This document shows positions 397-19,293 of a stretch of DNA of 39,680 nucleotides, in pieces. The notes under the pieces are model-generated. The model made no database searches. It saw nothing but the letters and a program-made list of their open reading frames with translations, and was not told where the DNA came from. Made by a program: the position numbers and the translations under genes. The stretch is from a virus (taxonomy: Duplodnaviria; Heunggongvirae; Uroviricota; Caudoviricetes), in the IMG/VR virus record IMGVR_UViG_650377934_000001. One strand, given 5' to 3'. Positions within the stretch are counted from its first letter, which is position 1. Each line of letters opens with the position of its first letter.

Positions 397-435
397 AGTA
401 CTAAAACAGAGATGTATTTTCTTGCCGGATGCGGC
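397..435. repeat. Host intergenic REP/BIME-like palindromic unit, left part (interrupted by prophage)
   Basis: ...GCCGGATGCGGC at 424-435 continues across the prophage into GTAAACGCCTTATCCGGCCTAC at 37158-37179, forming a canonical REP-type imperfect palindrome. Confidence 0.6.
431..435. repeat. Target-site duplication, left copy (GCGGC)
   Basis: Identical pentamer GCGGC directly abuts both prophage termini (431-435 and 37153-37157). Confidence 0.9.
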
Positions 436-520
436 TGAAGCGGCGCACGAAAAACGCGAAAGCGTTTCACGATAAATGCGAAAACTTTAGCTTTCGCGCT
501 TCAAATGAAACAGATGTATT
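436..520. other. Mu right end (attR) with transposase-binding repeats
   Basis: TGAAGCGGCGCACGAAAAACGCGAAAGCGTTTCACGATAAATGCGAAAAC followed by an inverted GCTTTCGCG copy; repeated CGAAA(A/G) motifs as in the left end. Confidence 0.8.
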
Positions 521-550
521 AATTACTGCTTTTTATTCATTACATGGGGA

Positions 551-1276
551 TCACTTAGGGTATGGCTGAACCTTGAATAGTTTGGTATTTAGCCGCTTCC
601 TTGCTCGTTTGTTCAGGAATCTGATGTAGCGATACTGATTAAATTTGTGTACCACGGCACGCTCTTTATTAGCCCGTAAATACACGCCTCGTTGTCCACC
701 TCGCTTAATCGCGTTCATCGTTATCTCGTGATACCACTCACCATCCAGCTCGTAGAACGTACTTTCATGACTGCCAATAAAATCAAAATTCGACGCCTGA
801 TACACAACGCCTGCGCGTCCGCAGCGTTCATCTGCAAAGGACTGAACCCACTCCACTGACGGATACAGTAATCTGATAACTTTCAGCGCGTAGCTGATGG
901 CCCGTGATTCAGAGTTGCGGGGCATGTCGTCGTGTAGCCACATGCGGTTCAACTCCATATAGCCCCGGTTATCCGTTTCAAGCACGACACGACGACCTGA
1001 GTTGGGGTTAAGGGCATATCCCCACTGGAGAACGCCAACCAGATCGCGTCCGCTGAATACCCCCAGGTGAAGGTAAGAGTTATTCACAAAACGGCGGGAA
1101 TAGTGCTTTGTCTGAATAATTGTGCGGGCCAGCCAGCAGGATATGGTTTCAACGCGCAGCTCCTTTGAACCATAGCCAACAATCTGGCCTTCATACTCAA
1201 TAACGCACGGTTTCGTCAGAATGCGTGATTTTTTCTCTTTTCCCACAATGTTTCTCCGTGGGATGCTCGCAGGCAT
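551..1276 (-). CDS. mom: Mom DNA-modification protein (adenine modification, anti-restriction)
   Basis: 241-aa ORF; last gene before the right end; 5' end overlapped by com. Confidence 0.85.
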
Positions 1277-1385
1277 TCAGCATTATGATGTGACGTTTGC
1301 AACGCGGACACCTGATTTCAATGTGATCAAAGGAATCCGCCTTAAATAACAGTTTGTTGCAGTTTTTACAGCGAATTGATTTCAT
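1197..1385 (-). CDS. com: Com, zinc-finger translational activator of mom
   Basis: 62-aa ORF with CKNC...CPRC zinc ribbon; overlaps mom start by 80 nt; AAGGAGG Shine-Dalgarno just upstream. Confidence 0.85.
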
Positions 1386-1494
1386 CTCACCTCCTTTGCA
1401 TCAATTCGCCACTATCTTAAAAAACATCATGGGTTGAGTGTGGTTATTGGGGCATAATCGATCTGTATTACCGATCGATTTAATTGATTCGATC
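1386..1494 (-). promoter_or_regulatory. mom operon promoter/regulatory region with three clustered GATC (Dam) sites
   Basis: GATC at 1460-1463, 1473-1476 and 1491-1494 within 35 bp, upstream of com; the third lies in the last codons of gin. Confidence 0.7.
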
Positions 1495-2061
1495 GTCGTT
1501 TTCTATATGCGCTCGTTTCGCGGGGTGTTTTTTATACAGAGTTGACAGGGCCACATCGTAGATCAATGCAACCTGCTTGCGGGGGATTCCTTGTGCTAAT
1601 AAACGCCCGGCCTGCTCCCATTCCGCTTTGGTTAGTTTAGGTGGTCGCCCACCAATACGGCCTTTATTTCTGGCGGCAGCAAGTCCAGCCATCGTTCGCT
1701 CGATAATTAGTTCTCGTTCCATTTCAGCCAGGGCACCCATAACGTGGAAGAAAAAACGCCCCATTGGAGATGACGTATCAATACTGTCAGTAAGACTGCG
1801 AAAATTAATCCCTCGCTCTCGTAATTCCCCTACGAGAGAAATCAAATGTTTCATGCTTCGCCCGAGGCGATCCAGTTTCCAGACAACCAGTGTGTCACCT
1901 TTTTGAAGGCGCTTTAAAGCGCGTTTTAATCCCGGTCGGTCTGTCCTTGTTCCGCTTAATTTATCTTCAAATATTTGTTCACATCCTGCACAAACAAGAG
2001 CGTTTCGTTGCAGGTCTGTATTCTGGTCATTTGTTGATACCCTTACATAGCCAATCAGCAC
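1480..2061 (-). CDS. gin: Gin DNA invertase (serine recombinase)
   Basis: Resolvase-type N-terminus (L)IGYVRVSTNDQ with catalytic Ser, C-terminal HTH; probable GTG start at 2061 giving 193 aa (longest ORF extends to 2088); lies immediately outside the 34-bp inverted repeat. Confidence 0.9.
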   Translation of the reverse strand: MLIGYVRVSTNDQNTDLQRNALVCAGCEQIFEDKLSGTRTDRPGLKRALKRLQKGDTLVVWKLDRLGRSMKHLISLVGELRERGINFRSLTDSIDTSSPMGRFFFHVMGALAEMERELIIERTMAGLAAARNKGRIGGRPPKLTKAEWEQAGRLLAQGIPRKQVALIYDVALSTLYKKHPAKRAHIENDDRIN

Positions 2062-2115
2062 TCTGGATCTCCTGTTTAAAAGCGCCAATCATGCCATGCG
2101 TGCCAAAATCGACCA

Positions 2116-2149
2116 TTATCCAAAACCTCGGTTTACAGGAAACGGTAAA
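2116..2149. repeat. 34-bp inverted repeat (Gin recombination site) bounding the G segment, gin-proximal copy
   Basis: TTATCCAAAACCTCGGTTTACAGGAAACGGTAAA is the exact reverse complement of 5166-5199; identity stops on both sides. Confidence 0.9.
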
Positions 2150-3134
2150 CAGGGCTAGGAACGCCGTGCAAAAGAATGGCGATACCTTGTCCGGTGGGCT
2201 TACTTTTGAAAACGACTCAATCCTTGCCTGGATTCGAAATACTGACTGGGCAAAGATTGGATTTAAAAATGATGCCGACAGCGACACTGATTCATACATG
2301 TGGTTTGAAACAGGCGACAACGGCAATGAATATTTCAAATGGAGAAGCAAACAAAGCACCACAACAAAAGACCTGATGAATCTTAAATGGGATGCTTTGT
2401 CTGTTCTTGTCAATGCCATTGTAAATGGCGAAGTCATATCAAAATCAGCAAACGGCCTCCGTATTGCTTATGGTAATTACGGATTCTTTATTCGTAATGA
2501 TGGTTCAAATACATACTTCATGTTGACAAACTCCGGTGACAACATGGGGACTTATAACGGATTAAGGCCATTATGGATTAATAACGCTACTGGCGCTGTT
2601 TCGATGGGGCGTGGTCTTAATGTTTCAGGGGATACACTTTCAGACCGTTTTGCTATTAACAGCAGTAATGGTATGTGGATTCAGATGCGCGATAACAACG
2701 CTATCTTTGGGAAAAATATAGTTAACACTGATAGCGCTCAGGCGTTGCTTCGCCAGAATCACGCCGACCGCAAATTTATGATTGGCGGTCTGGGAAATAA
2801 GCAATTTGGCATCTACATGATTAATAACTCAAGGACAGCCAATGGCACCGATGGTCAGGCGTACATGGATAATAACGGAAACTGGTTATGCGGTGCTCAG
2901 GTCATTCCGGGAAATTACGCCAACTTTGACTCCCGCTACGTGCGTGACGTTCGGCTGGGAACTCAGTCACTGACTGGCGGCTTGTCTCGTGATTACAAGG
3001 CGCCATCCGGTCATGTTATTACAGGTTTTCATACCAATGGCGACTGGGAAATGCAGGGAGGGGATGACAAGGTTTATATCCGTCCGGTTCAGAAGAATAT
3101 CAACGGTACCTGGTATAATGTAGCGAGCGCCTGA
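2116..3134 (+). CDS. Silent alternative tail-fibre variable cassette (S' variable part), currently not fused to the constant S region
   Basis: Reading frame runs through the inverted repeat and encodes the same [11 protein letters not shown] junction peptide as S; the part of ORF 1890..3134 upstream of 2116 is antisense to gin and not genic. Confidence 0.75.
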
Positions 3135-3136
3135 TT

Positions 3137-3664
3137 ATGATGCATCTGAAAAACATTAAGTCAGAAAATCCAAAAACTAAAGAGCAATATCAGCTAACAA
3201 AGAATTTTGATGTTATCTGGTTATGGTCCGAAGACGGGAAAAACTGGTATGAAGAAGTAAATAACTTTCAGGACGACACCATAAAGATTGTATACGACGA
3301 AAATAATATTATTGTTGCCATAACCAAAGATGCCTCAACGCTTAATCCCGAAGGCTTTAGCGTCGTTGAGATTCCAGATATAACAGCCAACCGCCGCGCT
3401 GATGATTCAGGAAAGTGGATGTTTAAGGATGGAGCTGTAGTTAAACGGATTTATACGGCAGACGAACAGCAACAACAAGCCGAATCACAAAAGGCCGCAT
3501 TGCTTTCCGAAGCTGAATCAGTCATCCAGCCGCTGGAACGCGCTGTCAGGCTGAATATGGCGACGGATGAGGAACGCGCACGACTGGAGTCATGGGAACG
3601 CTACAGTGTTCTGGTCAGCCGTGTGGATACGGCAAATCCCGAATGGCCACAAAAGCCTGAATAA
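3137..3664 (+). CDS. Alternative tail-fibre assembly protein (U'), silent cassette
   Basis: 175-aa ORF, clear paralogue of U ([21 protein letters not shown]...DGKNWYEE shared N-terminus); convergent with U. Confidence 0.8.
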
Positions 3665-3669
3665 AAATT

Positions 3670-3689
3670 AAGGCCCGATAGCGGGCCTT
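3670..3689. terminator. Palindromic hairpin between the convergent U and U' stops (probable bidirectional terminator at the midpoint of the G segment)
   Basis: AAGGCCCG-ATAG-CGGGCCTT perfect 8-bp stem; followed by a T-run on the - strand (AATTTTTAT). Confidence 0.55.
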
Positions 3690-3692
3690 CTC

Positions 3693-4226
3693 TCATTCTG
3701 GTTGTTCTGGAAACGTTACTGGCAGGCTGGAGGTGTCTGTGGATTCGACCTTCTGCGCGTAGAGCATCCACTCTGTTAATTTTTGTTTATTCTCGTCGGA
3801 AATGATGCCCAGCCGTAGCTGTGAGTCCCATAGCTGTGTTTTATCCCTGACGAGCTGTAGCAGGCTTTGCTTTTCATTTTCCGCTTGTTGCCTCTGCTCT
3901 TCCTCGGTATAAGTTCGCTTTATCACTACACCATCTTTGAACATCCATTTACCCGAAATATCAGCCCGGCGATTTGCTGTAATATCAGGAACCTCAACGA
4001 CGTTTGCGCCTTCTGGATTAATTGCTGAAACATCCTTTTCAATACAAATAATAACGCCGTTGTGGTCATAGACCATTTTCAACGTATCAGGCTGAAAGTT
4101 CTTTTGTTCCTCATACCAGTTTTTCCCATCCTCTGTATAAAGCCATTTGATGTTAAATTGTTTCGTTAGCTGGTATTGCTCTTTTGTTTTAGGGTTGCCA
4201 GCAGTAATATTTTTTAAGTGCATCAT
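3693..4226 (-). CDS. U: Tail-fibre assembly protein U (expressed orientation)
   Basis: 177-aa ORF directly downstream of S on the late-operon strand; paralogue of U'. Confidence 0.8.
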   Translation of the reverse strand: MMHLKNITAGNPKTKEQYQLTKQFNIKWLYTEDGKNWYEEQKNFQPDTLKMVYDHNGVIICIEKDVSAINPEGANVVEVPDITANRRADISGKWMFKDGVVIKRTYTEEEQRQQAENEKQSLLQLVRDKTQLWDSQLRLGIISDENKQKLTEWMLYAQKVESTDTSSLPVTFPEQPE

Positions 4227-4228
4227 AA

Positions 4229-5695
4229 TTAAATACTCCCCGCGTTATACCACGTTCCATTAATGCAATACTGAATTGGCCTTGCCTGAGTTGTATCAAT
4301 TAATTCATCACGGTTTCCGTTAACTGAACCCGTAACGACATAACCTGACCTGTCAGACCAGCCGGGACCATTCCATGTCTGAACAGATGACAGACCGCCA
4401 AGACGAATACCTGTAATAAACCTTGAGTTACATTCTGCCTGCGTATATGCACCAACATCTCCCGCTGATGGCTTACGTGTTGTGGTGTAAATTTCTGACC
4501 AGTCAGCTTCGAATCCGTAACCATCACGCGCTGAACGATAAAAAATACCGCCGTTCCTGTAATTCACACGGAACTGTACGGCAGGGCAACTCCCCGTATT
4601 CATATTGAAGTGGAGGATTAATGTCGATGCGCCACCAATATTTGCGTTATAGACCCCGCTATTCCAGTTCCAGCCAACAGCTTTATCATTTCCGACAGTG
4701 CTTCCTGTTTGTCCTAAAGCAAATGCAGGCTGCTGGTTTTTCGTGTTGTAGTCTCGTCGCCAGCCAGGAGCATAAGCATCACCATGATTAATATAAGTGA
4801 ATTGAGCGTTAGTGATTCCGCCGCCGCTGGACGTACTCGGCGTAGTAACGCGTATGGTCATTGCGCCGCGAGTGCCAATAACTTCCACCACAGCACCTGC
4901 AAGACAAATATTTCCGCAACCTGTATCTGTAATGACCTTATTGTTTGCATAAGCCCATGAGCCTTTGCACATCCAGTAAGGATGGTTAAATGCCCCCTGA
5001 CTCTCCAGCCACGAAATAAATTGTGCGGTTGTCCAGACCTGACTATCGCCACCAATATTCAGCCATGCGCTATATGCGCGACAGGCCCCAATATTTTTGG
5101 TGAAGGTATCTTTTCCTGGAATATCTGCGCCGTTCTGGTTTTGCTGTAATGCGCCAGAAGCCTGATTTACCGTTTCCTGTAAACCGAGGTTTTGGATAAA
5201 CAGCGGCTTATTGGGAATATCTGCTCCGTTCCGGTCTTTTGCCAGACGGGCATTGGCATTATCCATTGCAATTTTCACCGCTTTTGCGGTGGCTGCCAGC
5301 GTTTCACTGGGGCTGTCAGTGGCACTGGTTAGCTGAACGAGTCCTTTTTTGTTCAGGCTGGCATCATAGATATCCAGATTTTCACGTGCTGTACGCTGTG
5401 CTGATGCCCCGGCAGTTTTAATTTCGCTGAGGTTATTTTTTATCAGCAGCGCGTTATTGCTCATAATGGCTTTAATGGACAGTGCAAGCTGGTTTAATTT
5501 TGTTTTATCCGGTTGAATACCGGCTTCTTCCAGCGTGTTTAATAACTCCGCCTGCACAATATTAAACCAGTCCATGCCGGGCCATGTGATAACATTATTC
5601 CCGTCACCTTCTGAAAACCAGCGAACGATAGCACTACGCTGGGCGGATACGGGCGGCATGACGGTTACGCCGCTGTCGTTATCAATATAAAACAT
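4229..5695 (-). CDS. S: Tail-fibre protein S (constant part 5200..5695 fused in-frame to the variable part inside the G segment)
   Basis: 488-aa ORF spanning the inverted repeat at 5166-5199; start overlaps the stop of the upstream baseplate gene (ATGA). Confidence 0.85.
   Translation of the reverse strand: MFYIDNDSGVTVMPPVSAQRSAIVRWFSEGDGNNVITWPGMDWFNIVQAELLNTLEEAGIQPDKTKLNQLALSIKAIMSNNALLIKNNLSEIKTAGASAQRTARENLDIYDASLNKKGLVQLTSATDSPSETLAATAKAVKIAMDNANARLAKDRNGADIPNKPLFIQNLGLQETVNQASGALQQNQNGADIPGKDTFTKNIGACRAYSAWLNIGGDSQVWTTAQFISWLESQGAFNHPYWMCKGSWAYANNKVITDTGCGNICLAGAVVEVIGTRGAMTIRVTTPSTSSGGGITNAQFTYINHGDAYAPGWRRDYNTKNQQPAFALGQTGSTVGNDKAVGWNWNSGVYNANIGGASTLILHFNMNTGSCPAVQFRVNYRNGGIFYRSARDGYGFEADWSEIYTTTRKPSAGDVGAYTQAECNSRFITGIRLGGLSSVQTWNGPGWSDRSGYVVTGSVNGNRDELIDTTQARPIQYCINGTWYNAGSI
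5166..5199. repeat. 34-bp inverted repeat (Gin recombination site) bounding the G segment, S-proximal copy, inside the S coding sequence
   Basis: TTTACCGTTTCCTGTAAACCGAGGTTTTGGATAA = reverse complement of 2116-2149. Confidence 0.9.
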
Positions 5696-6237
5696 TAGTT
5701 ATCTCCGTCATGGTAAACAAATTTATAAATCTGATGCGCGGGTTTATATTTCTCCAGTAAACATTCCAGCGCACCCGATTCATAAACACGTAACGGCGTC
5801 AGAACATTATCCAGCACCGTTGCGTTGCGATAATTTTTAATACCGTAAATATTGACCTGCGTAACCCACTGGCCTTCTGTGGAATCCGTCAGCCTGACGG
5901 TAAAACCGTACTGCGCAGCCAGCCATTCATAAAAGCGCCGACTCAGATTGCCGGTCATACGCATTTTATTCGCGGCAGCCCGCTGGCGTTCGGACAGGGT
6001 GCCGTTTTCGCTGGTACAGTCCGGCAACCCCAGAAATGATTCCCACTCCCCCAGATACCAGCGGGATGTGGACGGGAAACGCTCCCGCAGCATTTGCCGC
6101 GCATCATCCGCCGCAGTGGCAATCACGTCGCTGATGGCCTGCGCCAGCGCAGATAATTTGCTGTCGGGGCTTTTATTCCAGGCAAGCCCTGACGGCAGTA
6201 ATTGCAGAAAGGCCGTCTGCCAGGGTGTTACAGCCAT
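5695..6237 (-). CDS. Baseplate/tail protein (Mu gp48-like, P2 gpI-like)
   Basis: 180-aa ORF in baseplate block, coupled to neighbours. Confidence 0.65.
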   Translation of the reverse strand: MAVTPWQTAFLQLLPSGLAWNKSPDSKLSALAQAISDVIATAADDARQMLRERFPSTSRWYLGEWESFLGLPDCTSENGTLSERQRAAANKMRMTGNLSRRFYEWLAAQYGFTVRLTDSTEGQWVTQVNIYGIKNYRNATVLDNVLTPLRVYESGALECLLEKYKPAHQIYKFVYHDGDN

Positions 6238-7310
6238 TCAATTGTCCCCGCTGTTAAGAGTTCCGTATTCTCCGAACGCTGGATCTCTGTCGGGAAACGC
6301 ACTTCAAAATCATCCAGACCGGTAACACCTGCCACCGCACGGATAATACGGGAGGGGGCAAGTGCGCCGCCCGGCATCACCTCATTAAAAAACATGGTAT
6401 TAATGGCGTTGGTAATAGCCTGTTTCAGTTCGGCTGTCTTCGGTGATATATAAATCCGTGGATTTACCGGCTTTGCCTTTGGCGCAAATACCGTGACATT
6501 TACACCGTCAGGCTGTCCGACAATCAGACCAGTGATCGGGTCAGTATGACCGGCGATATAATCCGCCACGCGTTCCACGTCTGCCGGTTGCGGAAAAATA
6601 TTGCTCCGGTTATCCATAACAAACGTCACCCCGACTGTGCCACCGCCTTTCCATGTCGGAAAACACCAGGCACGGGTAACACCGCTGACTTCACGTGCCC
6701 AGCGAACGTAATCAAACTGATTACCGCCGAACGGAGGATACTGGACACGATATTCCAGCCGTGACAGCAGCTCCGCTGCACTCTCAATATCAGCTCCACC
6801 GGAAAACCCTTTTACAGTGATGGCATCGGAAACAACACAGGCAACCGGGGTGATCAACGTTAAAAGGGTATTCTCACCGGTATTTCCTGCTTCACCGGCA
6901 GCCAGTGCGGTAACGGTAATTTCCGTCGTTCCTGCACGGTCAATCACAATGGTATCAGCCAGGCTGTAAACCACACCATCAGCACGCTGCCAGCGTGTAC
7001 CGGCAGGAATGGTGGTCGCTGCCGATGTGGTGACAGTCAGCGGGCCGCTGGCGGCTGTCGCCTGTTTGCGGCGCACGCCCCAGAACCGGCAGTGCTCCAG
7101 CAACTCATCTTCATCTGCTGTCGACGGGATAATCTGCCGTCCAACCCATGAAATATGCTCGTGACAACCGGCAGCAAGGCCCGCCTGAGCATAAGCAATG
7201 GCACTCAGCGTTTTTTCACGGGCCTGAGGCCAGCTACCCGGCAGGCGCTGTTCAATATTCTGTTCTGTACGGGCAATCAGCGATGATAATGTCGGTGGTG
7301 AATAAGCCAT
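6228..7310 (-). CDS. Baseplate wedge protein (baseplate J-like, Mu gp47-like)
   Basis: 360-aa ORF, position and size typical of baseplate J family. Confidence 0.7.
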   Translation of the reverse strand: MAYSPPTLSSLIARTEQNIEQRLPGSWPQAREKTLSAIAYAQAGLAAGCHEHISWVGRQIIPSTADEDELLEHCRFWGVRRKQATAASGPLTVTTSAATTIPAGTRWQRADGVVYSLADTIVIDRAGTTEITVTALAAGEAGNTGENTLLTLITPVACVVSDAITVKGFSGGADIESAAELLSRLEYRVQYPPFGGNQFDYVRWAREVSGVTRAWCFPTWKGGGTVGVTFVMDNRSNIFPQPADVERVADYIAGHTDPITGLIVGQPDGVNVTVFAPKAKPVNPRIYISPKTAELKQAITNAINTMFFNEVMPGGALAPSRIIRAVAGVTGLDDFEVRFPTEIQRSENTELLTAGTIEWL

Positions 7311-7748
7311 TTAAACCCCGTTAAATGCTGCTTTAAACTCATAAGGAATAACGGAACCATCCGGTAATGTCAGTGCAATGTAGAGGTATAACCAGCCCTG
7401 ATGTAACTGTTCCGCTCTGACGTTAATCGCACTTACCCGGCCCGCTGTTTTCAGCCATTCCAGCGCCTCTTCGGCATACCCTCTGGCGCGTTCCAGCGTA
7501 TCCGGCGTGGCTTTTTCACGTGATAACAGCCACAACCGCGAACCGATGGGGCGGTCGCGGTAACTGTCACCCCACCATCCACGGCGATCATCTGAACCAT
7601 CCGGCAGCGTGTCAGAATCCAGCGCGCGCCGGTCGGTAAACAGGGAGATTGTCACATCGGTTGTCAGGCTGTCGTCGGTCAGCATATCAATACCATCCTG
7701 CGCAATATCGCCGCGTCCGTTCGTCCAGATAATGGCTAAATCGGTCAT
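7311..7748 (-). CDS. Baseplate protein (gp25/GPW-like, Mu gp46-like)
   Basis: 145-aa ORF in conserved baseplate order. Confidence 0.65.
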   Translation of the reverse strand: MTDLAIIWTNGRGDIAQDGIDMLTDDSLTTDVTISLFTDRRALDSDTLPDGSDDRRGWWGDSYRDRPIGSRLWLLSREKATPDTLERARGYAEEALEWLKTAGRVSAINVRAEQLHQGWLYLYIALTLPDGSVIPYEFKAAFNGV

Positions 7749-8338
7749 TGCATCGGCCCTGTGGTTCCGCCGCTGTCGCCACGGTGGATATGCTTATCCG
7801 TCGATTTGCCATTGATGATGGCATCCGGGGCAGTAATATTGCTGTCGAACTGGCTTTTACCTTTAACGCCCAGACCTTTCTGGATCTCAACGTCGCCGGT
7901 AAACGTGGTTCTGGGTGTGTCAACGGTCATACTTTCATCAGCGTAAACCTCAACCGTTTTACAGGTAATGATGCAGCGTCCGTCCTTTGTCAGCCTGATA
8001 CGATGCCCCTCGTGGTGGTAAATGCCTGCATCACCCGGTTCAAGATTTGTCGGGCGGTAGCGGCGGTCTTCCACCACAACAGCAATCCCCTGATCACGTT
8101 GTGCGCCTACACAGGCAATCAGCGCCTCTGCGCCCGGCAGGGGAACGCTGAAATGCCCGTAATTTTGCAGGCGCTCCACTTCATCGGATTCCTCATCATC
8201 CAGCAGACCGACCTGCAGGTTCTGAACCTTTCGCCCGTCGTTAATCACGTTAACAACAGCGCGCGCAAGCATCAGGCGCACACGACGCATCAGCGGCGTC
8301 AGCAGGCGGTTCAAGGCGGAATCATTTACTCTTTCCAC
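7745..8338 (-). CDS. Baseplate central spike / puncturing device (Mu gp45-like)
   Basis: 197-aa ORF following the hub gene. Confidence 0.65.
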   Translation of the reverse strand: MERVNDSALNRLLTPLMRRVRLMLARAVVNVINDGRKVQNLQVGLLDDEESDEVERLQNYGHFSVPLPGAEALIACVGAQRDQGIAVVVEDRRYRPTNLEPGDAGIYHHEGHRIRLTKDGRCIITCKTVEVYADESMTVDTPRTTFTGDVEIQKGLGVKGKSQFDSNITAPDAIINGKSTDKHIHRGDSGGTTGPMQ

Positions 8339-9465
8339 GGCGGCGTTTTCTCCGGGTGTCTGCGATAATAATCTTCAACCAGCGCATCAATACCGCCGTT
8401 ACTGTCGCCGCCTTTCCTGTTTTTACGGTCGCTTTCAACCGGCACCAGAAAGCCTTCGCGTGGTGCAAGGCTGACGCGGGTTTTCAGCCCGTCCTGGTCA
8501 TTCAGTATCAGGGTGACTTTGCTGACCAGTAATTCCGTGGTTTTGATGGCATATTTCGAGGCATCAATAGTGACCAGCAGGTTCGGCATCCAGAGTTGCC
8601 CGTCCTTGCGAGTCCATCCGTCAATTTCTGCCTCAAAGGTGATGGATTTTGCCAGTCTGCGGCGTTGCTCACGCAGGGCGCGGGCCTGTGCATCCTTCGC
8701 CGTAATCTTGCTGTCAGCAATGATGATCATCGGTCTGTAACGGGTCACATCACTGTCAGTGGCGGTCCCTTTCCGGGATACGATACTTTTCGCATCAATA
8801 TCATCACCCTCAGCACCATTTGCGCGGGCATACCCCTTGACGGTGTATTCGCTGAACCGGTCGCGGAAGTCTTCCTCAAAATCCAGTGTCAGCAGATTTT
8901 CTCCGAGAACCAGCTCATCAGTGGCTGTGCTGGCAGCCCGGCTGAATACCAGCTCTCCGGCGGCATTGCTGGTCATCAGTACACCGCGTGCGCGGGAGGC
9001 ACGCACCAGCGCCTCATAAACGGTTTCTGAATGGTCCAGCGTGAAGCCGGGAAAAGCTGCCGAACTTTCCTTATCGGAAAGCTCCCAGCGAACGGTAACG
9101 CCATAAGGAGCGCACAGGTCACGCGCAATCTGCTCCAGTGTGCGGTTTTTCCACTGTCCGCCACTGTAAACGGCAGCACAGTCAATCAGGTCAGCCGTTT
9201 TGTCACGTCCGGCGACAGTGATTTTCATACTGTCAGCGGTCATCTGGCGTCGCCGTGAATCGATATAACCGGTGCAGACAATCTGCCCCCCGATTTCCAG
9301 CGTGAACTTCTTCCCCGGAGCCAGCCCGGATAAATCCGTGCCCGGTGGCACGTTCACCCCCAGCTCAAAATATCCGGCTACGGATTCAATCGAGCGGGTG
9401 ACAGAGACTGACGTCCAGCCGGTAAACAGCCTGCCATCCGCTCGCAGTGTGACGGTATTACTCAT
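8326..9465 (-). CDS. Baseplate hub protein (Mu gp44-like)
   Basis: 379-aa ORF, size and position match the Mu baseplate hub. Confidence 0.7.
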
Positions 9466-10945
9466 TAATCACCTCAATACTGACACCACCGGGAACAAAT
9501 AACGGGTTGCTGATACCGTTCCTGCGGGCCAGCCGTTGCCAGTTCCGGCTGTTTCCGGTGAACCGGTACAGTGCAACCATTGCCGGGAGCGTTTCTGGCA
9601 GGTGGTGTGATTCACTACCCGCCAGTTGCAGCCCGCGTTTTTCCAGGTCGGCAACAACCAGCAGACGCAGTTGCGTAAGCTGAACACTGTCTGTCGAAAA
9701 ACCCTGCTCAGATGCCGTCAGAATGACGCTATCCAGCGCCGCCCCCAGCATGGCAGTGGTTTTTTCGATATCGGACACACTTTCAAATACCGGGGGCGTG
9801 GCTGTACCACTGTCTGAAAAGGATACCTGTGAAAAGCCGCCGTCCGGGGTTATGGCAGTTAACTGTAACTGTCCCTGTGTGACGGTAGCAGATGTGCTGC
9901 TGGCCCCGCTGGCTGTGCCGGTTGTGGTGGACGGGGCATCCAGTACAGGTGCACGGGCGGCATTATCCATCCGGCGACTGAAATCCAGTGCCGCAGTCAG
10001 TGCCTGGCTGGCAGCTTCTGCCCGGTATGTCTGCGCCGCTGCCAGCATGACGTAGTTCAGTGTGGCAATATTTTTTTCTGCAACCGGACTGTTGTACGAG
10101 GTTGTGATTGTCCCCTGTCTGCCTGCGGTGGCGGCATGGCGACGTTCGAATCGCTGCGCCAGACGGTTCCATGTGGAAAATGCTGTCCGGGTATCGCATA
10201 ACGATGAAACGCCGGACAGCGCCCCCATCAGCGAGGAGGCCAGCATGGCAGGCTGGTTAATCAGGCTGGTCACAGAGCCTTTCATCGCAGAAAGCGATCC
10301 CATCAGACCGCTGACAGTCTGCGTAACCCCCAGATTGTCCACCGCATCACTGATATCATCGATGACACCGGTTACAGCTTCCATCACGGCGGTTGCCGCC
10401 GCAGTGCCATCTTTTACGGTTTGCCAGACAGAGGACAGCGTATCTCCCAGAGAACCGGTTACAGCAACGGCCTGTGCCGGTACGGCTGCACTGGTGTCTG
10501 TCTCTGCGTCCGGGGCAGTATCCTGCAACGACGGATAAACGGTAACGGTGAACGCGTAATAATTCAGTTCATCCGCTTTAGTGCGGCATTCCCATGAATC
10601 CACCATGACGTCCACAGTGCCGAAATCAGGATGTACCAGCTCACCGCTACCCGGAGCATCAAGAGCATCCATCAGCGCACCCGCTTCATCTCTGGCTGTT
10701 TCTGCGTTGCTGTTCAGAATGCAGGCGCTGAATGTACGGGAGCGAAGCTTTTTCCCCAGGTCATTGACGCCGCCGGTATCACGTAACGGGTACTCGCGTT
10801 TAACCAGGCGACGTCCGCCAGCCTGTTTTTGCTCCTCGATGACGAGAAACGGCACGTTACGGAACGTGCCTTTGCCGGTTGTTTTCCTGCCTCCACCGGT
10901 TTTATCCCGGACAGCATTAACGGCATTTAAAGCATCTTCAAACAT
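9458..10945 (-). CDS. DNA circularisation protein (Mu gp43-like)
   Basis: 495-aa ORF immediately downstream of the tape measure gene. Confidence 0.65.
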
Positions 10946-10949
10946 GGTC

Positions 10950-13022
10950 TTACCAGCCCGTAATGTAGTTATCGCCCGCGTAAATATTCAGCCCCATACC
11001 ATCCTCGGTGACGCGGGAACTGGTCAGACGTAACCCCTCGCCGAGTTCGACGCGCAGCGAGGCTTCCGCATTGACTTTTTGTTCCTGCGGTTCCTTATCC
11101 GTGGCCGTCCATTTCTGATACAGGTCGGTTACAAAACCGCCCAGATACTCCCCGGCGACACTGCCCAGCGTGGCACCAGCAACCGTACCCAGCGGTCCGG
11201 CAAGGCTGCCAACGGCACCGCCGAGCCATGCACCGGCTGTACTGCCAATTGCGCCTGCTTTTTCATGGGTTGACGCCTGCTCATCCATCAGGACGGGGGC
11301 AAGCTGGAGTGCCCCCATTACCGGGCCCCCCAGACGTGACAACGCACGACCGGCACCTTTCCCCATCCAGCCCAGCGCCCCGGCACCTTTTGTCACAACC
11401 CGACCGATCGCACTGCCTGCAAGTTTGTTTCCGATACCGGAAAACCACCCGCCAACGGCACGCCCGGCATCAGCCAGCTTTCCGACCGTTCCCGTAACCA
11501 GTTGCCCGGCAGCACTGCCTGCAAGCCTGCTCAGAAGACCGGATTTACCGGGTAAAGGTAATGGTGCAGGCCGTGCCGTTACCGGTACGCCGGGTGGGGG
11601 TAATGCCAGTACAGGGCGTGGTGCAGGTAATGCCAGCGGCTGTGGCCCGGACAGCAATAACGGCTGGCGGGGTAACAGCGGGGCCATTCTTCCGCCGCTC
11701 CGTACACGACGACCGCCGCCACTCCCGTAGTCACCAAATCCACGGGGCCAGTTGATGACAAACACACGCTGAATGCCGATACCCTGCAACAGCGTCTCAG
11801 ACGTCATGGCATCCGGGACCGGCAGACCTGCCTGCCCACGTTTGCGGTTTCGCATCCAGCGCCACATACGACGCCCGGTTTTAAACGGATAACTGGCAAC
11901 CTGCCATGAGGGTTTTGCCACGGCCCAGCCTGCTCTCAGGGCTTTATTGGCAAGCCAGACAGACACCAGAACAGCAGCCAGTTTTTTCAGGCTGACAATA
12001 TTCTGGTCAACCCATGCCAGCGCATCTTTACCCGGTTTCAGCCAGCGCCATAATTCCTGCGCCGAGATTTTTACCGTTCTGAACGTGGTCAGAAATTTCT
12101 GACCAATGTTTTCTGCCAGTGCGTCAAGTTCCCCGGATTTATCCGCCATGTCGTGCCAGTTAAGCACCCGGCGCATCTCGTTCTTGATTTCTTCAAAGGG
12201 GCCGCTGTTTGCCACCTTTATGCGAAATTCAAGCAGGTTGGCTTCCATCTGGGCGAACATCCCGTCCCAGGAGTTCATCGCACTGGCCTGTGCACCTTTT
12301 GACTGTTCTGACAGCGTTCTGAATACCGTCAGAATGGATTTCATGCCCAGCTTGCCCTTTGTACCCAGATCACGGATTTTTTTAACGTCCGTTCCCGTTG
12401 CATCCGCCAGCGCCTGATAAACGTTGATACCGTAACCGGTCAGCAGGTTGGCATCCGCCGCTGTGATTTGCTGGCGGGCAAACATCTGTTTCAGTTGCAG
12501 TGAGGCACCCTGTGCAGTGGGTAAATCCCAGCCGTGCATGGCCCCCTGATCCTGCAACATGGTGATGAACTGTTTCGTCTGTTCATCCGTCATGCCGAAG
12601 CCTTTCGACGAACGGATCTCATCCAGAACACCACTCAGCCCCCACGTGGTGTCCTTCGCGTTCTGCTTCGCCCAGGCCATCATGGCCTGCGCTCTGACCT
12701 TATCGCCGTGATACAGCGAGTTCATGGCGATGATCTGCTGCTCACGCTGGGCGGCTGCACCAATAAACAGTTTATTGGCGGTGTAACCCACGCCAGCGAT
12801 ACCCAGCGCCCCGGCTGACAGCATTCGGAATGTACGGGTTGACAGTGAACCCATTCTGTCAATGGCACCAGAAACGCGCACAACCTCCATACGCAGGGCA
12901 CGAAGGGAACTTTGCCCGCTACGGGACAGGGCGTTTATCTGGTTCGAATACTGGCGGGAACGCCGGGAAAGATTGCCATTAAGATCAATAATGACAGACG
13001 CCTTTAAGCGTTTCCCGGTCAT
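10950..13022 (-). CDS. Tail tape measure protein
   Basis: 690-aa ORF between tail chaperone and baseplate genes; long helical N-terminal part, Pro-rich linker and Gly/Ala-rich C-terminal segment. Confidence 0.8.
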
Positions 13023-13166
13023 AGATATTTCCTGATTTAACGGTGATATTGAGAGAGGGTTTTAGCCTGCTGGCAGTGCCGGAAAAAGCGGGACAGCGGG
13101 AGAGACAAGGCCCATTCCGGGCCACTTTTCAGAATAACGCCAATCGCTGTCGCCGCTTTCTCAATA

Positions 13167-13601
13167 TCATTCCGGCACCGCAGCCACTCGCCCCCGTTCT
13201 TGTGTCAGCGATGCCGCCACAGCCATGTCGTACATTTCTGTGGCCAGCGACAGACGCTGGAAGTCATCGACAGACAGTTTACGAATCAGCGCCATCGACA
13301 ACGGGCCTTTGATGCAGCCCACGCTGGCAATCTGTCGGCGCAGCATTTCCAGTCCCATCCGGGACGGGGAACTGACCAGCACCGGACCTTCCTTGCTCAT
13401 TACCAGCTTTTCAGCAGCCGCCTGTGCATCAATCATATCGCCTGCGGTCAGTTCACGCAGCGTCACGTCATACTGCATTTCAGTCTCGTCACCGGTGCCG
13501 AACGGCAGGCCGTCTTTCAGTTTCAGCACGCCGGACTGAATTTCTGCCACAATGCTGTCATGCAGTTCCTGTGCTTCAGGACCTAAATTCATTTCGTCCA
13601 T
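13167..13601 (-). CDS. Tail assembly chaperone-like protein (Mu gp41-like)
   Basis: 144-aa acidic ORF between tube and tape measure genes. Confidence 0.55.
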   Translation of the reverse strand: MDEMNLGPEAQELHDSIVAEIQSGVLKLKDGLPFGTGDETEMQYDVTLRELTAGDMIDAQAAAEKLVMSKEGPVLVSSPSRMGLEMLRRQIASVGCIKGPLSMALIRKLSVDDFQRLSLATEMYDMAVAASLTQERGRVAAVPE

Positions 13602-13610
13602 TGTTTCCCC

Positions 13611-13967
13611 TTATGCAATGCGTTTGCTTTGTTTTGCCATCAGTACCAGCGAAATTTCGCCGCCGTCGTTTTTCGGTTCATCCGCCTGCCAGGCATTCGC
13701 CAGCATCCAGGTTTCACCGGTATCAGCCTGGAATTCGACGGTGATGTTTTCCCAGTCGATAATTTCATCCAGCCCGATGGGACCACCGCCCGGAATTTTG
13801 CATTCCACTTTTGCGGCACGAGGTTTACCTTTCCAGCCATAAACCCGCGAGCCGGTCACTTCTTCACGGGTGATGCCGGAAGGCGTGAAGGAGGCACCTT
13901 CCATTGATTCAAGCTCCATGCCATTGACACGGATGAACGCCACCCCCTGACGCTGATTTCCAGCCAT
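13611..13967 (-). CDS. Tail tube protein
   Basis: 118-aa ORF directly downstream of sheath gene. Confidence 0.75.
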   Translation of the reverse strand: MAGNQRQGVAFIRVNGMELESMEGASFTPSGITREEVTGSRVYGWKGKPRAAKVECKIPGGGPIGLDEIIDWENITVEFQADTGETWMLANAWQADEPKNDGGEISLVLMAKQSKRIA

Positions 13968-13976
13968 AAATGCTCC

Positions 13977-15464
13977 TTACAGAATGAACTGAACTTGTGC
14001 CGCGAAAATGCGGAACTGGTTAATCAGATTCGGGCCGCACAGCACATCAAGACGGTCTTTGTCGTCCTTGTTACGTGCCACATACAGCTCCTCTTTGAAC
14101 GTGTCGAAATCCTCGACCAGTCCGGCGTTTTCCCATTCTTCAAACAGTGCCAGCAGCTCCGTTTTGATCACGGATGGCGTCACCACGGCCTGACCGGTGG
14201 CAAAGCGGGTGCCATCACTTGCCAGCTTGTAGTTCGGGAATTTCTGCGTGATGCGGGTTCGCAGCGAATAACGCAGATAACTCAGCGTGGCGATGGTATT
14301 CACGTTCAGATAAGACGGATCACTGTCACCGTACTTGTTTGTGCGGTACATCGTGATCATGCGTTCAATCTGCATTTCACCACCATCATTCACGTTAAAC
14401 GTGGAGATGCCGTCAAACAGCAGCGCATTACGTTCTGACCAGGTGAAACGATCCCCCACCGCAGGCGGCATTCTTCCGGGCAACGTCAGCGTCTGGAGTG
14501 GACGCGCCGGGTCGATGGAAAGCGCCTGGCTGGCAACGGCACACAGTGTGGCGGCGTACAGATATGACGGTTCCGGTGCACCGGCAATCCCCATACAGGA
14601 AATCAGATGGTCATTACGGCTGACACCAAACGTGGAAATGTCCCCATACGTGCCGGACAGCACTGTCACGGCAAAGCCATCAGCCTGATTGACCGGTCCC
14701 CAGCGTTCCTGCAATTCAGTGCGTAACAGATTCAGGTTCGGTTCATCGGTATAGGGCATCACAATATATTTATATTGCAGATCGCCCATTCCCGCGATAC
14801 TTGCGCTGATATCCGGGTTGCCATTTTTCCCGGAGGCGGCTTTGAATGCCGTGATAATCCCGTAAGGGGTCGTTTCACCCGCGTAATAGTTCCAGCGCAC
14901 GTCCACGGCAGATAATGCACCCGTAAATTTTGCACTCAGAACCACATCTGCATGGGTGTCATCATCCCCGCTGTCTGCGCGAACTTCTGCCGTCACCGGT
15001 AAATCAGGCTGGCCTTTGATTCGGGCAACCAGCAGGTCAGCCAGCGCCGCTCCCGTTGCACCTGCTGCGACAGATACCGCCAGTCGCTGACCGGCAATGT
15101 AAGTCACAAGCGAGCCGTTTTCGCCTGCCGTTCCTGACAGTGAAATTTCACCGACAGCAGCATTACCGGTGCCGTTCCCCTGCGGAATACACCACAGCTC
15201 CGCCACGCGGTTAGCGTTCAGGAATGCATCTGCCATCAGTGCCAGCATGGAACCCTGACCAAACGCCGCACTGGCCTGTGAGCCGGAACGGATACGGACA
15301 GGCACGTTTGGTGCCGCACTGGCTTTACTTCCGCTTTGCCCGAACATCAGCACGCGCTGACGGGGAGCCGGTGTTCCGCTGACGGCATTGCTGTTATCAA
15401 ATTCGATATACGTCAGAGGAACGCGAACATCTGACGGGATCGCGTTAAATGAAATATCGCTCAT
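13977..15464 (-). CDS. L: Contractile tail sheath protein
   Basis: 495-aa ORF, first large tail gene, followed by tube gene. Confidence 0.85.
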
Positions 15465-15667
15465 TTCGATTTACTCCGTTTTTTCGGCGCAGCGTCGGTA
15501 TCATCCGCCGTGTTTTCGGTGCTCCCGACTTCAACCACATCACCGGCTGCAAGGCGACGTATCCAGAAACTGTTACGGGGCTTTTCTTCTCCCTCAGACG
15601 CCAGTAATTTCATCGTGAGCGGGTCACGGATGGCTTTTCCCGCTGCGGGTTTAATTTTCAGCATCAT
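15461..15667 (-). CDS. Small virion protein (Mu gp38-like)
   Basis: 68-aa ORF with ATGA-type overlap onto the sheath gene. Confidence 0.5.
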
Positions 15668-16199
15668 GATCCTTTTCCTGATTCACATTGATATGTGCGG
15701 CAAATTCCGGGGTTTCGTCCGGGAATTTCCAGGTCTGCCAGTGACGCTCGTAATCATCCAGCGAATCCAGGTCCACTACGGACGGCAGCGGGGTTGTGCC
15801 ACTGAACAGAACGCCGTAAAGCACCACACCGGCATTGATACGGTTGTCGTCACAAAGATTTCTGACCTGCGTCAGCCTCATCCCGGTGGTCGGGCCAAAC
15901 GTCTGACCGTTAACACCGGCAATCAGTCGCTCCACAATCTGATAAATACCGGGCCGGTTTACCGGTTCCCCGTTCAGCAACTCCGCCACGACAAAAAATG
16001 CCCAGCGACTTTCAACTTCCCGACGCGTACGCCCCTCACCACAGCCCATCCATGCCAGAAATACCGATGGCGGGGCCAGAAAGAGACGGTGCACATCCTC
16101 ATTAGTCCATGTGCCGGTAAGGGGTTCCACCTGCCGCAGGGTTGCCCCAAACAACTCACGAACGCGCGCCAGCAGTGCGGCTTCGGTTTCTTCCAGCAT
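15651..16199 (-). CDS. Head-tail joining / virion morphogenesis protein (Mu gp37-like)
   Basis: 182-aa ORF in the neck gene block. Confidence 0.55.
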   Translation of the reverse strand: MLEETEAALLARVRELFGATLRQVEPLTGTWTNEDVHRLFLAPPSVFLAWMGCGEGRTRREVESRWAFFVVAELLNGEPVNRPGIYQIVERLIAGVNGQTFGPTTGMRLTQVRNLCDDNRINAGVVLYGVLFSGTTPLPSVVDLDSLDDYERHWQTWKFPDETPEFAAHINVNQEKDHDAEN

Positions 16200-16624
16200 C
16201 AGATAAACCCCTTCTGTTTTCGTGAAAAAACAGGCGGATCAGACTGAACCTGCACAAGATCCTCTCCCTCCGGCGACGCTGCCGTTCTGCTTTCCACGCC
16301 GGGATCTGTTTTGCCATCGCGCACCTGTTCCAGCCAGCGCACCGTGTCCCTGTAAGTTGCGGTGATCTGCTCGGTGGGTTGTGATTCATTCAGATAAAAC
16401 CAGGCCACCACGCAACACTGCCGTTTCAGCAGTGAGGGGACGACGGTAAGCGGCAGAACAAAGCGCGCGGCGAGATAGCCATCAATAAAGGCCGAAGCAT
16501 CTGCCAGTGCCTGTTCTGCCACGGCATCATCCGGCTGCCCGTCCGCTGTTTTAGGGCGGGTGAGAATATCCAGCCGCGTACGTGTATAGCGGGCGCACAG
16601 GTCATTTACCGTCGCGTAATTCAT
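16199..16624 (-). CDS. Head completion protein (Mu gp36-like)
   Basis: 141-aa ORF, ATGA overlap with the downstream gene. Confidence 0.55.
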   Translation of the reverse strand: MNYATVNDLCARYTRTRLDILTRPKTADGQPDDAVAEQALADASAFIDGYLAARFVLPLTVVPSLLKRQCCVVAWFYLNESQPTEQITATYRDTVRWLEQVRDGKTDPGVESRTAASPEGEDLVQVQSDPPVFSRKQKGFI

Positions 16625-17031
16625 GCATCCGCCTCAGCCAGCGCCGCTTTGATTTGCGCACTGCTCACCGGTTCCCCCAGCGCCGCACTGACGGCTTTCA
16701 CTTTGGGTTCTCCCCCTGCGGTAAAGTGCTCCGGGTTTGCCTTATCCAGACCGGCAACGGTCGCACGGATACGGGTATTCAGATCGCCCACACCCAGAAC
16801 GTCCAGCCCCCCAGCCTCAGCGAGCGTTTCTGCTGACGATGCAGATACCACAGACAGCACGCTGTCGGCACGAATGATCGCCAGTTGTTCTTCGGTGACT
16901 TCCACGGTGTTTTCGCCACGCGTAAAGGCGATTCCGGCGCGGCGGTAGACCGGACGAAGGCATTTAATAATCGCCGTGCAAGTGATGCGAGAAGTGTCCA
17001 GCCGTTGTGAATTAAGCGAAGTGCCTGACAT
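16621..17031 (-). CDS. Head-associated protein (Mu gp35-like)
   Basis: 136-aa ORF preceded by AAGGAGGAG Shine-Dalgarno, just after the capsid-gene hairpin. Confidence 0.55.
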   Translation of the reverse strand: MSGTSLNSQRLDTSRITCTAIIKCLRPVYRRAGIAFTRGENTVEVTEEQLAIIRADSVLSVVSASSAETLAEAGGLDVLGVGDLNTRIRATVAGLDKANPEHFTAGGEPKVKAVSAALGEPVSSAQIKAALAEADA

Positions 17032-17066
17032 AACACATGCTCCTCCTTTTCCTTTAAATCAGGTTA

Positions 17067-17088
17067 AAAGGCGGTCTGAACCGCCTTT
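17067..17088 (-). terminator. Stem-loop immediately downstream of the major head gene (attenuator/terminator-like)
   Basis: AAAGGCGG-TTCAGA-CCGCCTTT on the - strand, 9 nt after the T stop codon; weak U-tract. Confidence 0.45.
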
Positions 17089-17097
17089 TAATGACGG

Positions 17098-18015
17098 TTA
17101 CAGGTAGTCAGCGACAACCAGTTGCAGCTTGCCCTTCATCTCGTTGGAGACGGTGGTATTGCCATCCGCGAACAGTTCACGGTTAAGCAGTTGCTCTGCG
17201 GCTTTTTCCAGCCCGACCGGTACAACGATATGCGTCGGCTTCAGGCCCAGTTTCTTACCGCCATCACCTTCAAAAGAGCGCATCAGTTGCCAGCCCTTCC
17301 AGAGGTTATCCAGCGTCAGATCGCCTTTTACCGCGACAGCCATCTGCCAGAAGCCGTAACCGGCAGCACGGCGGGTGCTGGCACCAAACAGGAACTCGTT
17401 ATCCATAAAAACGTGGTCGTCATCGATACGGGTACGTGCGACCAGTTCCGGTTTGCGGCGCTCCTGGAAAATCAGCGGTTTGACTGCGCGGGAGCAGTCC
17501 AGCAGATAGAATGGCAGACCGCTGAAGCTGTCCTGCTCAACGATGTTGGAGGTATTAACCGCGCTGCCCGTGCCATCCACATTCGGATATACCGGATGCT
17601 CCTTGTCGAAGAAGTTCTGACCGTCATAGCAGGGCTGGGTAAAGCCATCTTTCAGAAGTTTAAAAATCAGCTCATCCGGCTGAACTGCCGCAGAACGGCC
17701 CATCTCCTGAAAAATCGGCGCATAAATACCCAGATTGTCATCCTCGAAGTCATCACGGGAAATACCCACGGTGCCTTCAAACGTTTTATTGGCGATGGAG
17801 TAGCCATGCGCTTCCATTTGCTGAATGGTTCGCTTACCCACCCATTCTTTCAGGGTCGGGAATTTACCCAGCCAGCCATAGGTATTACTGCGGGTGGAAG
17901 AGTTCACCACCATTGCAATTTTGTTGTACTGCGACGGGGCGTCTTCAAGACCGCCCTGAAAATCCTTACGCCAGGAGGTCATCAGGGCTTTAATGGATGC
18001 CGGGGTGACAATCAT
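17098..18015 (-). CDS. T: Major head (capsid) protein
   Basis: 305-aa ORF following the protease/scaffold gene, ATGA overlap with I. Confidence 0.85.
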   Translation of the reverse strand: MIVTPASIKALMTSWRKDFQGGLEDAPSQYNKIAMVVNSSTRSNTYGWLGKFPTLKEWVGKRTIQQMEAHGYSIANKTFEGTVGISRDDFEDDNLGIYAPIFQEMGRSAAVQPDELIFKLLKDGFTQPCYDGQNFFDKEHPVYPNVDGTGSAVNTSNIVEQDSFSGLPFYLLDCSRAVKPLIFQERRKPELVARTRIDDDHVFMDNEFLFGASTRRAAGYGFWQMAVAVKGDLTLDNLWKGWQLMRSFEGDGGKKLGLKPTHIVVPVGLEKAAEQLLNRELFADGNTTVSNEMKGKLQLVVADYL

Positions 18016-19097: not shown

Positions 19098-19293
19098 GTC
19101 CTGCTGCTCATCATGGTTTGTGAGCAGTCAGTTTGCGGGAGGTGCGGGAAAATCTGGGGTTATGCTATTTGAGTACTGGAGAAAGAAAGTGAAAGGAAGA
19201 TAAAACGGGATTCATACACCGTTAAATACCGGTTTAAAAATCCCGTGGCGCGTTTTAAAAAATCTGTGCGGCTGATTTTATGCCTGATTCTGT
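19098..19293 (-). promoter_or_regulatory. G-I intergenic region: late promoter for the head operon and expected location of the central strong gyrase site
   Basis: 196-bp non-coding gap at the exact centre of the prophage, about 17.9-18.1 kb from the left end. Confidence 0.55.

Follow-up and report, generated by a model that had tools for sequence, protein, structure and literature searches.

The invertible tail-fibre region of a Mu prophage read as the bacteriophage Mu G segment in the G(-) orientation

Since about 1980 the bacteriophage Mu G segment has served as a textbook case of programmed DNA inversion. Its 34-bp repeats, the central crossover bases and the host ranges of the S/U and S'/U' fibres have been described, and induced lysates hold both isomers (PMC4406740). 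The mechanism, with Gin, gix, Fis and the enhancer, has been described as well (PMC3575834, PMC3798978). In the annotation of the Mu reference genome (NC_000929/AF083977), S and U are the G(+) genes and S' and U' are the G(-) genes. Here we compare these and related systems with the invertible region of virus record IMGVR_UViG_650377934_000001; the whole stretch of 39,680 nucleotides that was analysed is called the window. The Mu reference is identical to the window in the sequence of 2116-5199, in Gin, U, U', Sc, Sv and S'v, and has the same gene order, repeats and gin position; the difference lies in the orientation, G(+) in the reference record against G(-) in the window. The genomes of SfMu and D108 are likewise of the Mu type and include a G segment along with gin and mom, but in both phages one fibre cassette is divergent. 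SfMu matches 92% of the query at 93% identity, and its deposited sequence runs colinear with the window, i.e. as G(-); it is unlike the window in a 1-bp change in one repeat and in its O-antigen receptor (PMC4406740). The C segment of P1/P7 with Cin, and phage D6, match the query 1400-5800 within the invertible region (megablast, about 90-93% identity over about 56-65% of the query), and their records likewise hold an annotated invertible segment with S/U-type fibre and chaperone genes. However, these are plasmid prophages with another backbone and their own invertase, and the fibre module alone matches. The H segment of Salmonella also uses a Fis- and enhancer-dependent serine DNA invertase, Hin, on paired inverted sites (PMC3575834, PMC3798978), but what Hin flips is a promoter, which switches flagellin expression, and no exchange of fibre-gene 3' ends takes place.

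A complete bacteriophage Mu of 36,717 bp occupies window 436-37152; by megablast its minus strand matches NC_000929/AF083977 at 100%. The flanks of the G segment match NC_000929 100% on the minus strand and 2116-5199 matches 100% on the plus strand, so that the inversion relative to the reference covers exactly 2116-5199. Once the reference G segment (31954-35037) is inverted, 3 mismatched bases are left, at window 7644, 17881 and 36363. One of these differences places Arg at residue 47 of the c repressor, where the reference has Gln, and the other two are synonymous. The repressor allele of the reference is presumably cts62, and a literature search on cts62/R47Q returned unrelated papers only. 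The identity to Mu and the orientation are direct observations. Because the reference is G(+) and the segment is inverted relative to it, the window is G(-). We put the probability at about 0.97 that the region is the Mu G segment, within an otherwise complete Mu prophage, captured as the G(-) isomer, and as far as the sequence can tell it holds nothing against this explanation. The features that define the locus are the following.

436..37152, minus strand: Mu prophage, with the right (mom) end at 436 and the left (c) end at 37152
431..435, unstranded: 5-bp target-site duplication GCGGC at the Mu right end, with a second copy at 37153-37157 (flank comparison)
1480..2061, minus strand: gin, serine DNA invertase of 193 aa with a GTG start and catalytic Ser9, protein identical to reference Mup53
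2116..2149 (Mu 35004-35037), unstranded: gin-proximal 34-bp inverted repeat (repeat search and reference alignment)
2150..3134, plus strand: Sv, variable 3' part of the G(+) fibre gene S, silent (ORF and reference comparison)
3137..3664, plus strand: U, tail-fibre assembly chaperone of 175 aa, silent, identical to reference U (Mup50), Caudo_TAP 6.7e-37
3670..3689, unstranded: GC-rich hairpin AAGGCCCGATAGCGGGCCTT within the 28-bp gap between convergent U and U'
3693..4226, minus strand: U', tail-fibre assembly chaperone of 177 aa, identical to reference U' (Mup51) and not to U, Caudo_TAP 3e-37
4229..5695, minus strand: S' (Sc, repeat and S'v), 488 aa, tail-fibre gene of the expressed orientation, same as the fibre from the G-inverted reference
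5166..5199 (Mu 31954-31987), unstranded: late-operon-proximal 34-bp inverted repeat (repeat search and reference alignment)
5200..5695, minus strand: Sc, constant 5' part of the tail fibre, outside G, equal to reference 31458-31953, annotated as the amino-terminal end common to S and S'

The two repeats are exact reverse complements over 34 bp on recheck, in agreement with the original prediction of perfect inverted repeats with about 3.0 kb between them. The match stretches imperfectly to 41 nt (93%), and the chance expectation for such a pair in 39.7 kb is about 3e-12. The DNA between the repeats measures 3,016 bp (3,084 bp with both repeats included). They fall within the fibre coding sequence, and both frames give an identical stretch of 11 residues (13 residues read per frame); this shared peptide had also been predicted and is present in the expressed and the silent translations. 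In both gix sites, two 12-bp half-sites flank an identical 2-bp core: 2116-2141 reads TTATCCAAAACC-TC-GGTTTACAGGAA, and 5174-5199 is the exact complement of this. With the known gix/hix architecture as a guide, we read 2116-2141 as the gin-proximal 26-bp gix core, with 2128-2129 as the crossover dinucleotide, and 5174-5199 (TTCCTGTAAACC GA GGTTTTGGATAA) as the late-operon-proximal core, with 5186-5187 as the crossover dinucleotide. The 'G-segment boundary' positions annotated in the reference, Mu 35025 and Mu 31966, correspond to window 2128 and 5187.

The ends of the prophage read GCGGC followed by TGAAGCGG on one side and CAATACA followed by GCGGC on the other. The 5-bp duplication supports a simple insertion; the basis is this duplication and not an empty-site comparison. 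A 'DH5alpha' record was considered as an empty site and rejected, as it is an engineered Mu deletion with an FRT scar. The gene order at the insertion is a fliJ-like gene, a cytidyltransferase gene, Mu and a glycosyltransferase gene. The G segment lies between the late tail genes and gin-com-mom, as in Mu, with the Com ORF at 1197-1385 and the Mom ORF at 551-1276. E. coli W carries a Mu prophage in its Flag-2 locus (Archer et al. 2011, PMC3032704). The prophage of the window is this published "WMu"; its host belongs to the E. coli W lineage, and Flag-2 is the locus of insertion. It has the Flag-2 host context of WMu in E. coli W (ATCC 9637), and the W-lineage strain SL112 shares its junction; unlike the window, SL112 carries the G(+) isomer. 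Strain hubt-sl, which matches window 1-5800 at 100%, was considered as the source of the window and rejected, as different DNA adjoins its Mu left end.

The orientation found in this one assembly might be taken as the predominant or selected state of the prophage in this lineage rather than a random snapshot. Such a state could come about, for instance, if E. coli W-type cells were the natural G(-) host and reinfection or superinfection dynamics favoured G(-). In that case the near-identity to laboratory Mu (repressor Arg47 and two synonymous changes) would suggest that Taylor's Mu had its natural reservoir in a W-like strain. We consider such a selected state very unlikely. Sister W-lineage strains are G(+).

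The same strains bear on whether the segment still switches. SL112 has the same prophage at the same insertion junction in the G(+) state; after inversion of 2116-5199, no mismatch is left in 6,227 bp. Strain S17-1 is likewise G(+), and ST18, which derives from it, is G(-). Both isomers are thus seen in sister assemblies, and therefore the switch flips; for the occurrence of both orientations in lysogen populations, these other assemblies are indirect evidence. A frozen relic, in which the orientation is fixed in this prophage and switching has been lost, would fit the single orientation displayed by a single assembly, and a close relative, SfMu, is suspected of impaired inversion, with a 1-bp change in one repeat (PMC4406740). 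Here, however, neither 34-bp repeat has a mismatch, gin does not differ from the functional Mu gene (Ser9 included), and the enhancer-bearing 5' region of gin is identical to the reference. The intact gin and repeats are observed directly, and together with the opposite orientations of the prophage in SL112 and of S17-1 and ST18 they make a relic highly improbable.

The original prediction had placed gin just outside the repeat, and this is borne out: the start of gin is 54 bp off the left repeat, and gin is transcribed away from G. By its domains, Gin fits the class of Fis/enhancer-dependent serine invertases (Gin, Hin, Cin, Pin), with an N-terminal catalytic domain, Ser9 and a C-terminal helix-turn-helix. 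Pfam assigns Resolvase to residues 3-135 (6.7e-50) and HTH_7 to residues 138-181 (2.4e-17), and Ser is residue 9 in VLIGYVRVS. The Fis-dependent recombinational enhancer (sis) presumably lies inside the 5' part of gin, at approximately 1890..2061. A location inside gin is attributed to Kahmann et al. 1985 where that work is cited in PMC3798978. The first 200 bp of gin were scanned for Fis cores (15-bp G-N13-C pairs, 48 bp apart); the sole pair at exactly 48 bp is unconvincing, and the more plausible Fis-like cores, GTATCAACAAATGAC and GTGCAGGATGTGAAC, are spaced 49 bp. A consensus scan of 1300-6300 gave fewer promoter-like matches than shuffles and is thus uninformative; in the stretch from gin to the repeat (2062-2150) it gave no sigma-70-like promoter for gin.

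Inversion by host homologous recombination (RecA) between the repeats, instead of by Gin, can in principle occur at any inverted repeat, and sequence comparison alone is silent on the enzyme. For RecA-dependent exchange, a 34-bp repeat is at the lower limit. An intact dedicated serine invertase adjoins the repeats, and the repeats show the layout of two gix half-sites with a central dinucleotide. Gin-dependent inversion of the same sequence has been reconstituted in vitro, according to literature cited in PMC3575834 and PMC4406740. We regard the RecA route as exceedingly improbable.

For the Mu G segment switched by Gin, the following mechanism can be proposed. In the present isomer, the late operon on the minus strand would transcribe Sc (5200-5695) and continue across the 34-bp repeat into the facing cassette, here S'v and then the chaperone gene U'. 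The virions would carry the S'/U' fibre and would adsorb to E. coli C, Citrobacter freundii, Shigella sonnei, Enterobacter cloacae and Erwinia. The Sv-U cassette on the other strand has no promoter and no 5' part. Gin is expected to bind the gix core of each repeat, with host Fis bound to the enhancer inside the 5' end of gin. Gin would then make staggered cuts at 2128-2129 and 5186-5187, rotate one pair of half-sites by 180 degrees and religate. This rotation would invert about 3 kb and so swap the cassettes. Lysogen cultures would be mixtures because inversion is slow, and the assembly of a mixed culture would report one isomer. We infer the Gin/Fis biochemistry, the dependence on the late promoter and the receptor specificity from established knowledge.

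Inside G there are two convergent cassettes, each with a fibre variable 3' part and its own chaperone, and all are identical to the Mu reference proteins. On the minus strand, the ORF 4229..5695 spans the right repeat, and the ORF 3693..4226 comes next. The prophage is thus in the G(-) state, with S' and U' as the predicted expressed genes and Sv and U silent. Sv has been cut off from both Sc and the late promoter and is silent for that reason. The 488-aa S' has Phage_fiber_2 and gp37_C domains, and a Gp34_trimer domain is found in Sv. The architecture of the original prediction, an invertible G segment with constant S fused to one of two cassettes, stands, and so does its Gin mechanism, in which orientation governs the host range, as known for Mu (PMC4406740), but the cassette names were swapped. 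Orientation had been left formally open there, although the S and U labels implied G(+); comparison of the cassettes with the Mu reference, proposed as the way to name it, gives G(-). The view that S and U are expressed, that the prophage is G(+) and that its virions infect E. coli K-12 draws solely on that naming, since the layout of constant part, cassette and chaperone is the same in both isomers, and it has practically no chance of being right: direct comparison with the annotated G(+) reference refutes it, because the expressed chaperone (3693..4226, called U) is reference U', the silent one (3137..3664, called U') is reference U, the expressed fibre (4229..5695, called S) is the 488-aa product of the inverted reference, i.e. 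S', whereas reference S has 504 aa, and the segment matches the reference on the strand opposite to its flanks. Because the S/U and S'/U' labels are reversed, the predicted host range of this G(-) isomer is reversed as well, to E. coli C, Citrobacter, Shigella sonnei, Enterobacter and Erwinia rather than K-12.

The invertible tail-fibre switch of the window is already known and is the ordinary textbook Mu G segment, and it has little significance beyond correct annotation. In this record, which is G(-), the expressed fibre genes should carry the names S' and U' instead of S and U. On the silent strand, pipelines call 'tail fiber protein' ORFs, but these are 3' cassettes separated from the rest of the gene and do not stand as genes by themselves. 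Where strains are otherwise identical, a difference in this 3-kb block is a programmed flip and should not be taken for a mutation or an assembly error.

Sv and S'v have little similarity beyond the residues encoded by the repeat. The U and U' proteins are 56% identical, and so the predicted paralogy holds; the divergence had been assigned to their C-terminal halves, but it is the C-terminal third that differs, with 84/120 identical positions by alignment count in the first 120 residues and 16/57 in the last 57. Between the two chaperone genes, the hairpin at 3670..3689 is probably terminator-like for the expressed strand, as judged from its sequence.

The G segment, the fibre block inverted by Gin (2116-5199), stands in the G(-) state as judged against the Mu reference (NC_000929 / AF083977), and S' and U' are predicted to be expressed. 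We assign this state because both chaperone ORFs and the fibre ORF of the late operon match reference products. The reference is annotated as G(+): S (504 aa) and U (175 aa) lie on the late-operon strand, and the opposite strand has U' (177 aa) and the S' carboxy terminus, marked 'in G(-) phage'. Reference U' is identical to the product of 3693..4226 (minus strand), the gene after the expressed fibre, and reference U to that of 3137..3664 (plus strand). The 488-aa expressed fibre is identical to the product of the G-inverted reference.

Features of the window (genes and frames from the ORF list)
1480..2061, minus strand: gin, recombinase of 193 aa; left repeat 54 bp away
2116-2141: crossover site of the gin-side repeat, TTATCCAAAACC-TC-GGTTTACAGGAA
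ending at 3134, plus strand: open frame through the left repeat
3137..3664, plus strand: chaperone ORF of 175 aa, after the frame ending at 3134
3693..4226, minus strand: chaperone ORF of 177 aa, next after the 488-aa fibre ORF
4229..5695, minus strand: fibre ORF of 488 aa, passing through the right repeat
5174-5199: crossover site of the other repeat, exact complement of the 2116-2141 site
36363 (Mu 790): base difference from the reference, c repressor residue 47

In a megablast search of phage records, window 436-25000 is 100% identical to the minus strand of the reference except for about 3 kb, and 2116-5199 matches the plus strand, again at 100%. We inverted Mu 31954-35037 in the reference and checked each base of the result against window 436-37152. 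The inverted reference leaves 3 mismatches (window 7644, 17881 and 36363), while the uninverted reference leaves 2,207, all except those 3 within 2150-5165. Mu is flanked by GCGGC, a 5-bp direct duplication, and a short flanking direct duplication is expected of a Mu transposition product. One host flank has a cytidyltransferase gene with a fliJ-like gene beside it, and the opposite flank has a glycosyltransferase gene. The identity, the duplication and the flanks together identify the window as Mu itself, a prophage in W-lineage E. coli.

The repeats, the fibre ORFs, the oppositely facing cassette and gin all lie where the original prediction placed them (repeat finder, string comparison and ORF list), and both fibre frames do encode the same 11 residues across the repeat (ORF list and protein comparison). 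The repeat finder returned arms at 2116-2156 and 5159-5199 with 93% complementarity across 41 nt; direct string comparison gave 34 bp of exact reverse complement, 2116-2149 against 5166-5199, with the match ending directly outside and one base inside the 34 bp. By chance, a sequence of this length should contain about 3e-12 such pairs. The outer 26 bp of both repeats have the two-half-site layout of invertase sites. The reference annotates a 'G-segment boundary' at Mu 31966 and at Mu 35025; the corresponding window positions, 5187 and 2128, each lie in the central dinucleotide of a crossover site.

Systems of this kind have the enhancer within the invertase gene, ~100 bp away from one of the crossover sites. 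The enhancer region of the window is identical to that of Mu; a separate scan for paired Fis-like cores yielded no clear pair, and the predicted enhancer position is approximate only. The mechanism of Gin and Hin is well established (PMC3575834, PMC3798978). Each crossover site would be bound by Gin dimers and synapsed at the Fis-bound enhancer; double-strand cleavage would form phosphoserine links, one subunit pair would rotate by 180 degrees, and the strands would then be religated. The Gin of the window has a Resolvase catalytic domain (6.7e-50) and an HTH_7 domain (2.4e-17), and position 9 is a serine (N-terminus VLIGYVRVS). Ser9 of Gin has been reported to link covalently to DNA (Klippel et al. 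1988, as cited in PMC3575834).

Public assemblies provide an indirect test of switching. In strain SL112 (W lineage, University of Florida) the prophage lies at the same junction as in the window. Over 6,227 bp the two show 2,204 differences, all in 2150-5165, and 0 once 2116-5199 is inverted, which identifies the SL112 prophage as the G(+) isomer of the one here. By annotation, Mu in S17-1 is G(+), with a fibre of 1,515 nt and a chaperone gene of 528 nt, while in the S17-1 derivative ST18 it is G(-), with 1,467 and 534 nt; the strand relation of the flanks to the G segment supports both orientations. Because the window differs in orientation from SL112, and S17-1 from ST18, at least two flips of the G segment have taken place among laboratory lineages that are closely related. 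Lysates of induced lysogens hold both isomers in about equal amounts (PMC4406740), so the orientation in any single assembly most likely samples a culture in which the two are mixed. A frozen relic that no longer switches is unlikely: the parts are intact, with the 34-bp repeats perfect in the assembly and Gin identical to the reference, and sister strains hold the opposite isomer. Inversion by RecA is also unlikely, as the repeats are short, have the gix layout and adjoin a dedicated invertase.

The original prediction had proposed comparison with Mu to name the orientation, and had itself taken S/U as the expressed pair and S'/U' as the silent one; the direct comparison rules out this G(+) labelling, the silent chaperone being reference U. 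E. coli K-12 is infected by G(+) particles (PMC4406740). With the labels swapped, the predicted host range is therefore reversed, from K-12 to the G(-) hosts E. coli C, Citrobacter, Shigella sonnei, Enterobacter and Erwinia. The switch is the canonical example of its class in the canonical phage, at essentially 100% identity, and is already known. The sole value here is the corrected label and a warning that, where otherwise identical strains differ over these 3 kb, the difference is programmed.

Both U and U' match Caudo_TAP, a tail-fibre assembly family, and share 56% identity. They diverge at the C-terminus as predicted, over the last third more accurately than the last half (84/120 identical in the first 120 residues vs 16/57 in the last 57, counted from the alignment). 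The variable fibre parts, Sv and S'v, align by BLASTP at 36% identity over just 83 residues and have little in common besides the repeat-encoded residues; their domains differ, Gp34_trimer in Sv and gp37_C in S'. The C-terminal ends of S' and S (window 4229-4290 and 3075-3134) share a terminal motif, one reading ...RPIQYCINGTWYNAGSI, despite the otherwise unrelated fibre variants. The convergent U and U' are 28 bp apart at the centre of G, and a GC-rich hairpin (3670-3689) lies in that gap. In our scan the hairpin is terminator-like on the minus (expressed) strand; its T-run on the plus strand is only weak. The hairpin is the predicted end of the late transcript and could serve as terminator in either orientation.

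The silent Sv frame on the plus strand stays open upstream through the repeat, antisense to gin, to a GTG at 1890 (window 1890-3134), and pipelines therefore annotate a stand-alone 'tail fiber protein'. S'v is annotated likewise in G(+) records, as Mup52 in the Mu reference and as a 996-nt CDS in SL112 and S17-1; in the ST18 record the detached fragment is labelled a pseudogene without an N-terminus. Such silent-strand annotations arise from the switch and do not represent separate genes.

The sole non-synonymous difference from the reference is at residue 47 of the c repressor (196-aa form), Arg here and Gln in the reference; the remaining two, at 17881 and 7644, are synonymous, in major head gene T and gp46. 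Since we take the reference phage to be cts62, and cts62 to be R47Q, the prophage of the window would be c+ and differ hardly at all from laboratory Mu. Given such near-identity, one may ask how the prophage came to be in E. coli W stocks.

NZ_CP026085.1 ('DH5alpha', 4.83 Mb) has a W-type Flag-2 locus (3775500-3780000), and at the site of window 436/37152 an FRT scar with pKD-type priming sites lies between 70 bp of each Mu end. Mu was deliberately removed by recombineering from this W derivative, and the strain name looks wrong. Strain hubt-sl (NZ_CP104206.1; loci at 3.64 Mb and 4.24 Mb) carries a full Mu, Arg47 and G(-), which keeps the right-end junction of the window; its left end joins other DNA, next to a frdA fragment and the transposase gene of ISVsa5. 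The window's left-end junction is occupied by a truncated Mu left end that extends to Mu 2173 and has Gln47, as in the reference; this truncated end lies beside frdA and ~0.6 Mb from the full Mu. The arrangement suggests a ~0.6-Mb inversion by recombination of WMu, the published Mu prophage in the Flag-2 locus of E. coli W (PMC3032704), with a laboratory Mu-derived element.
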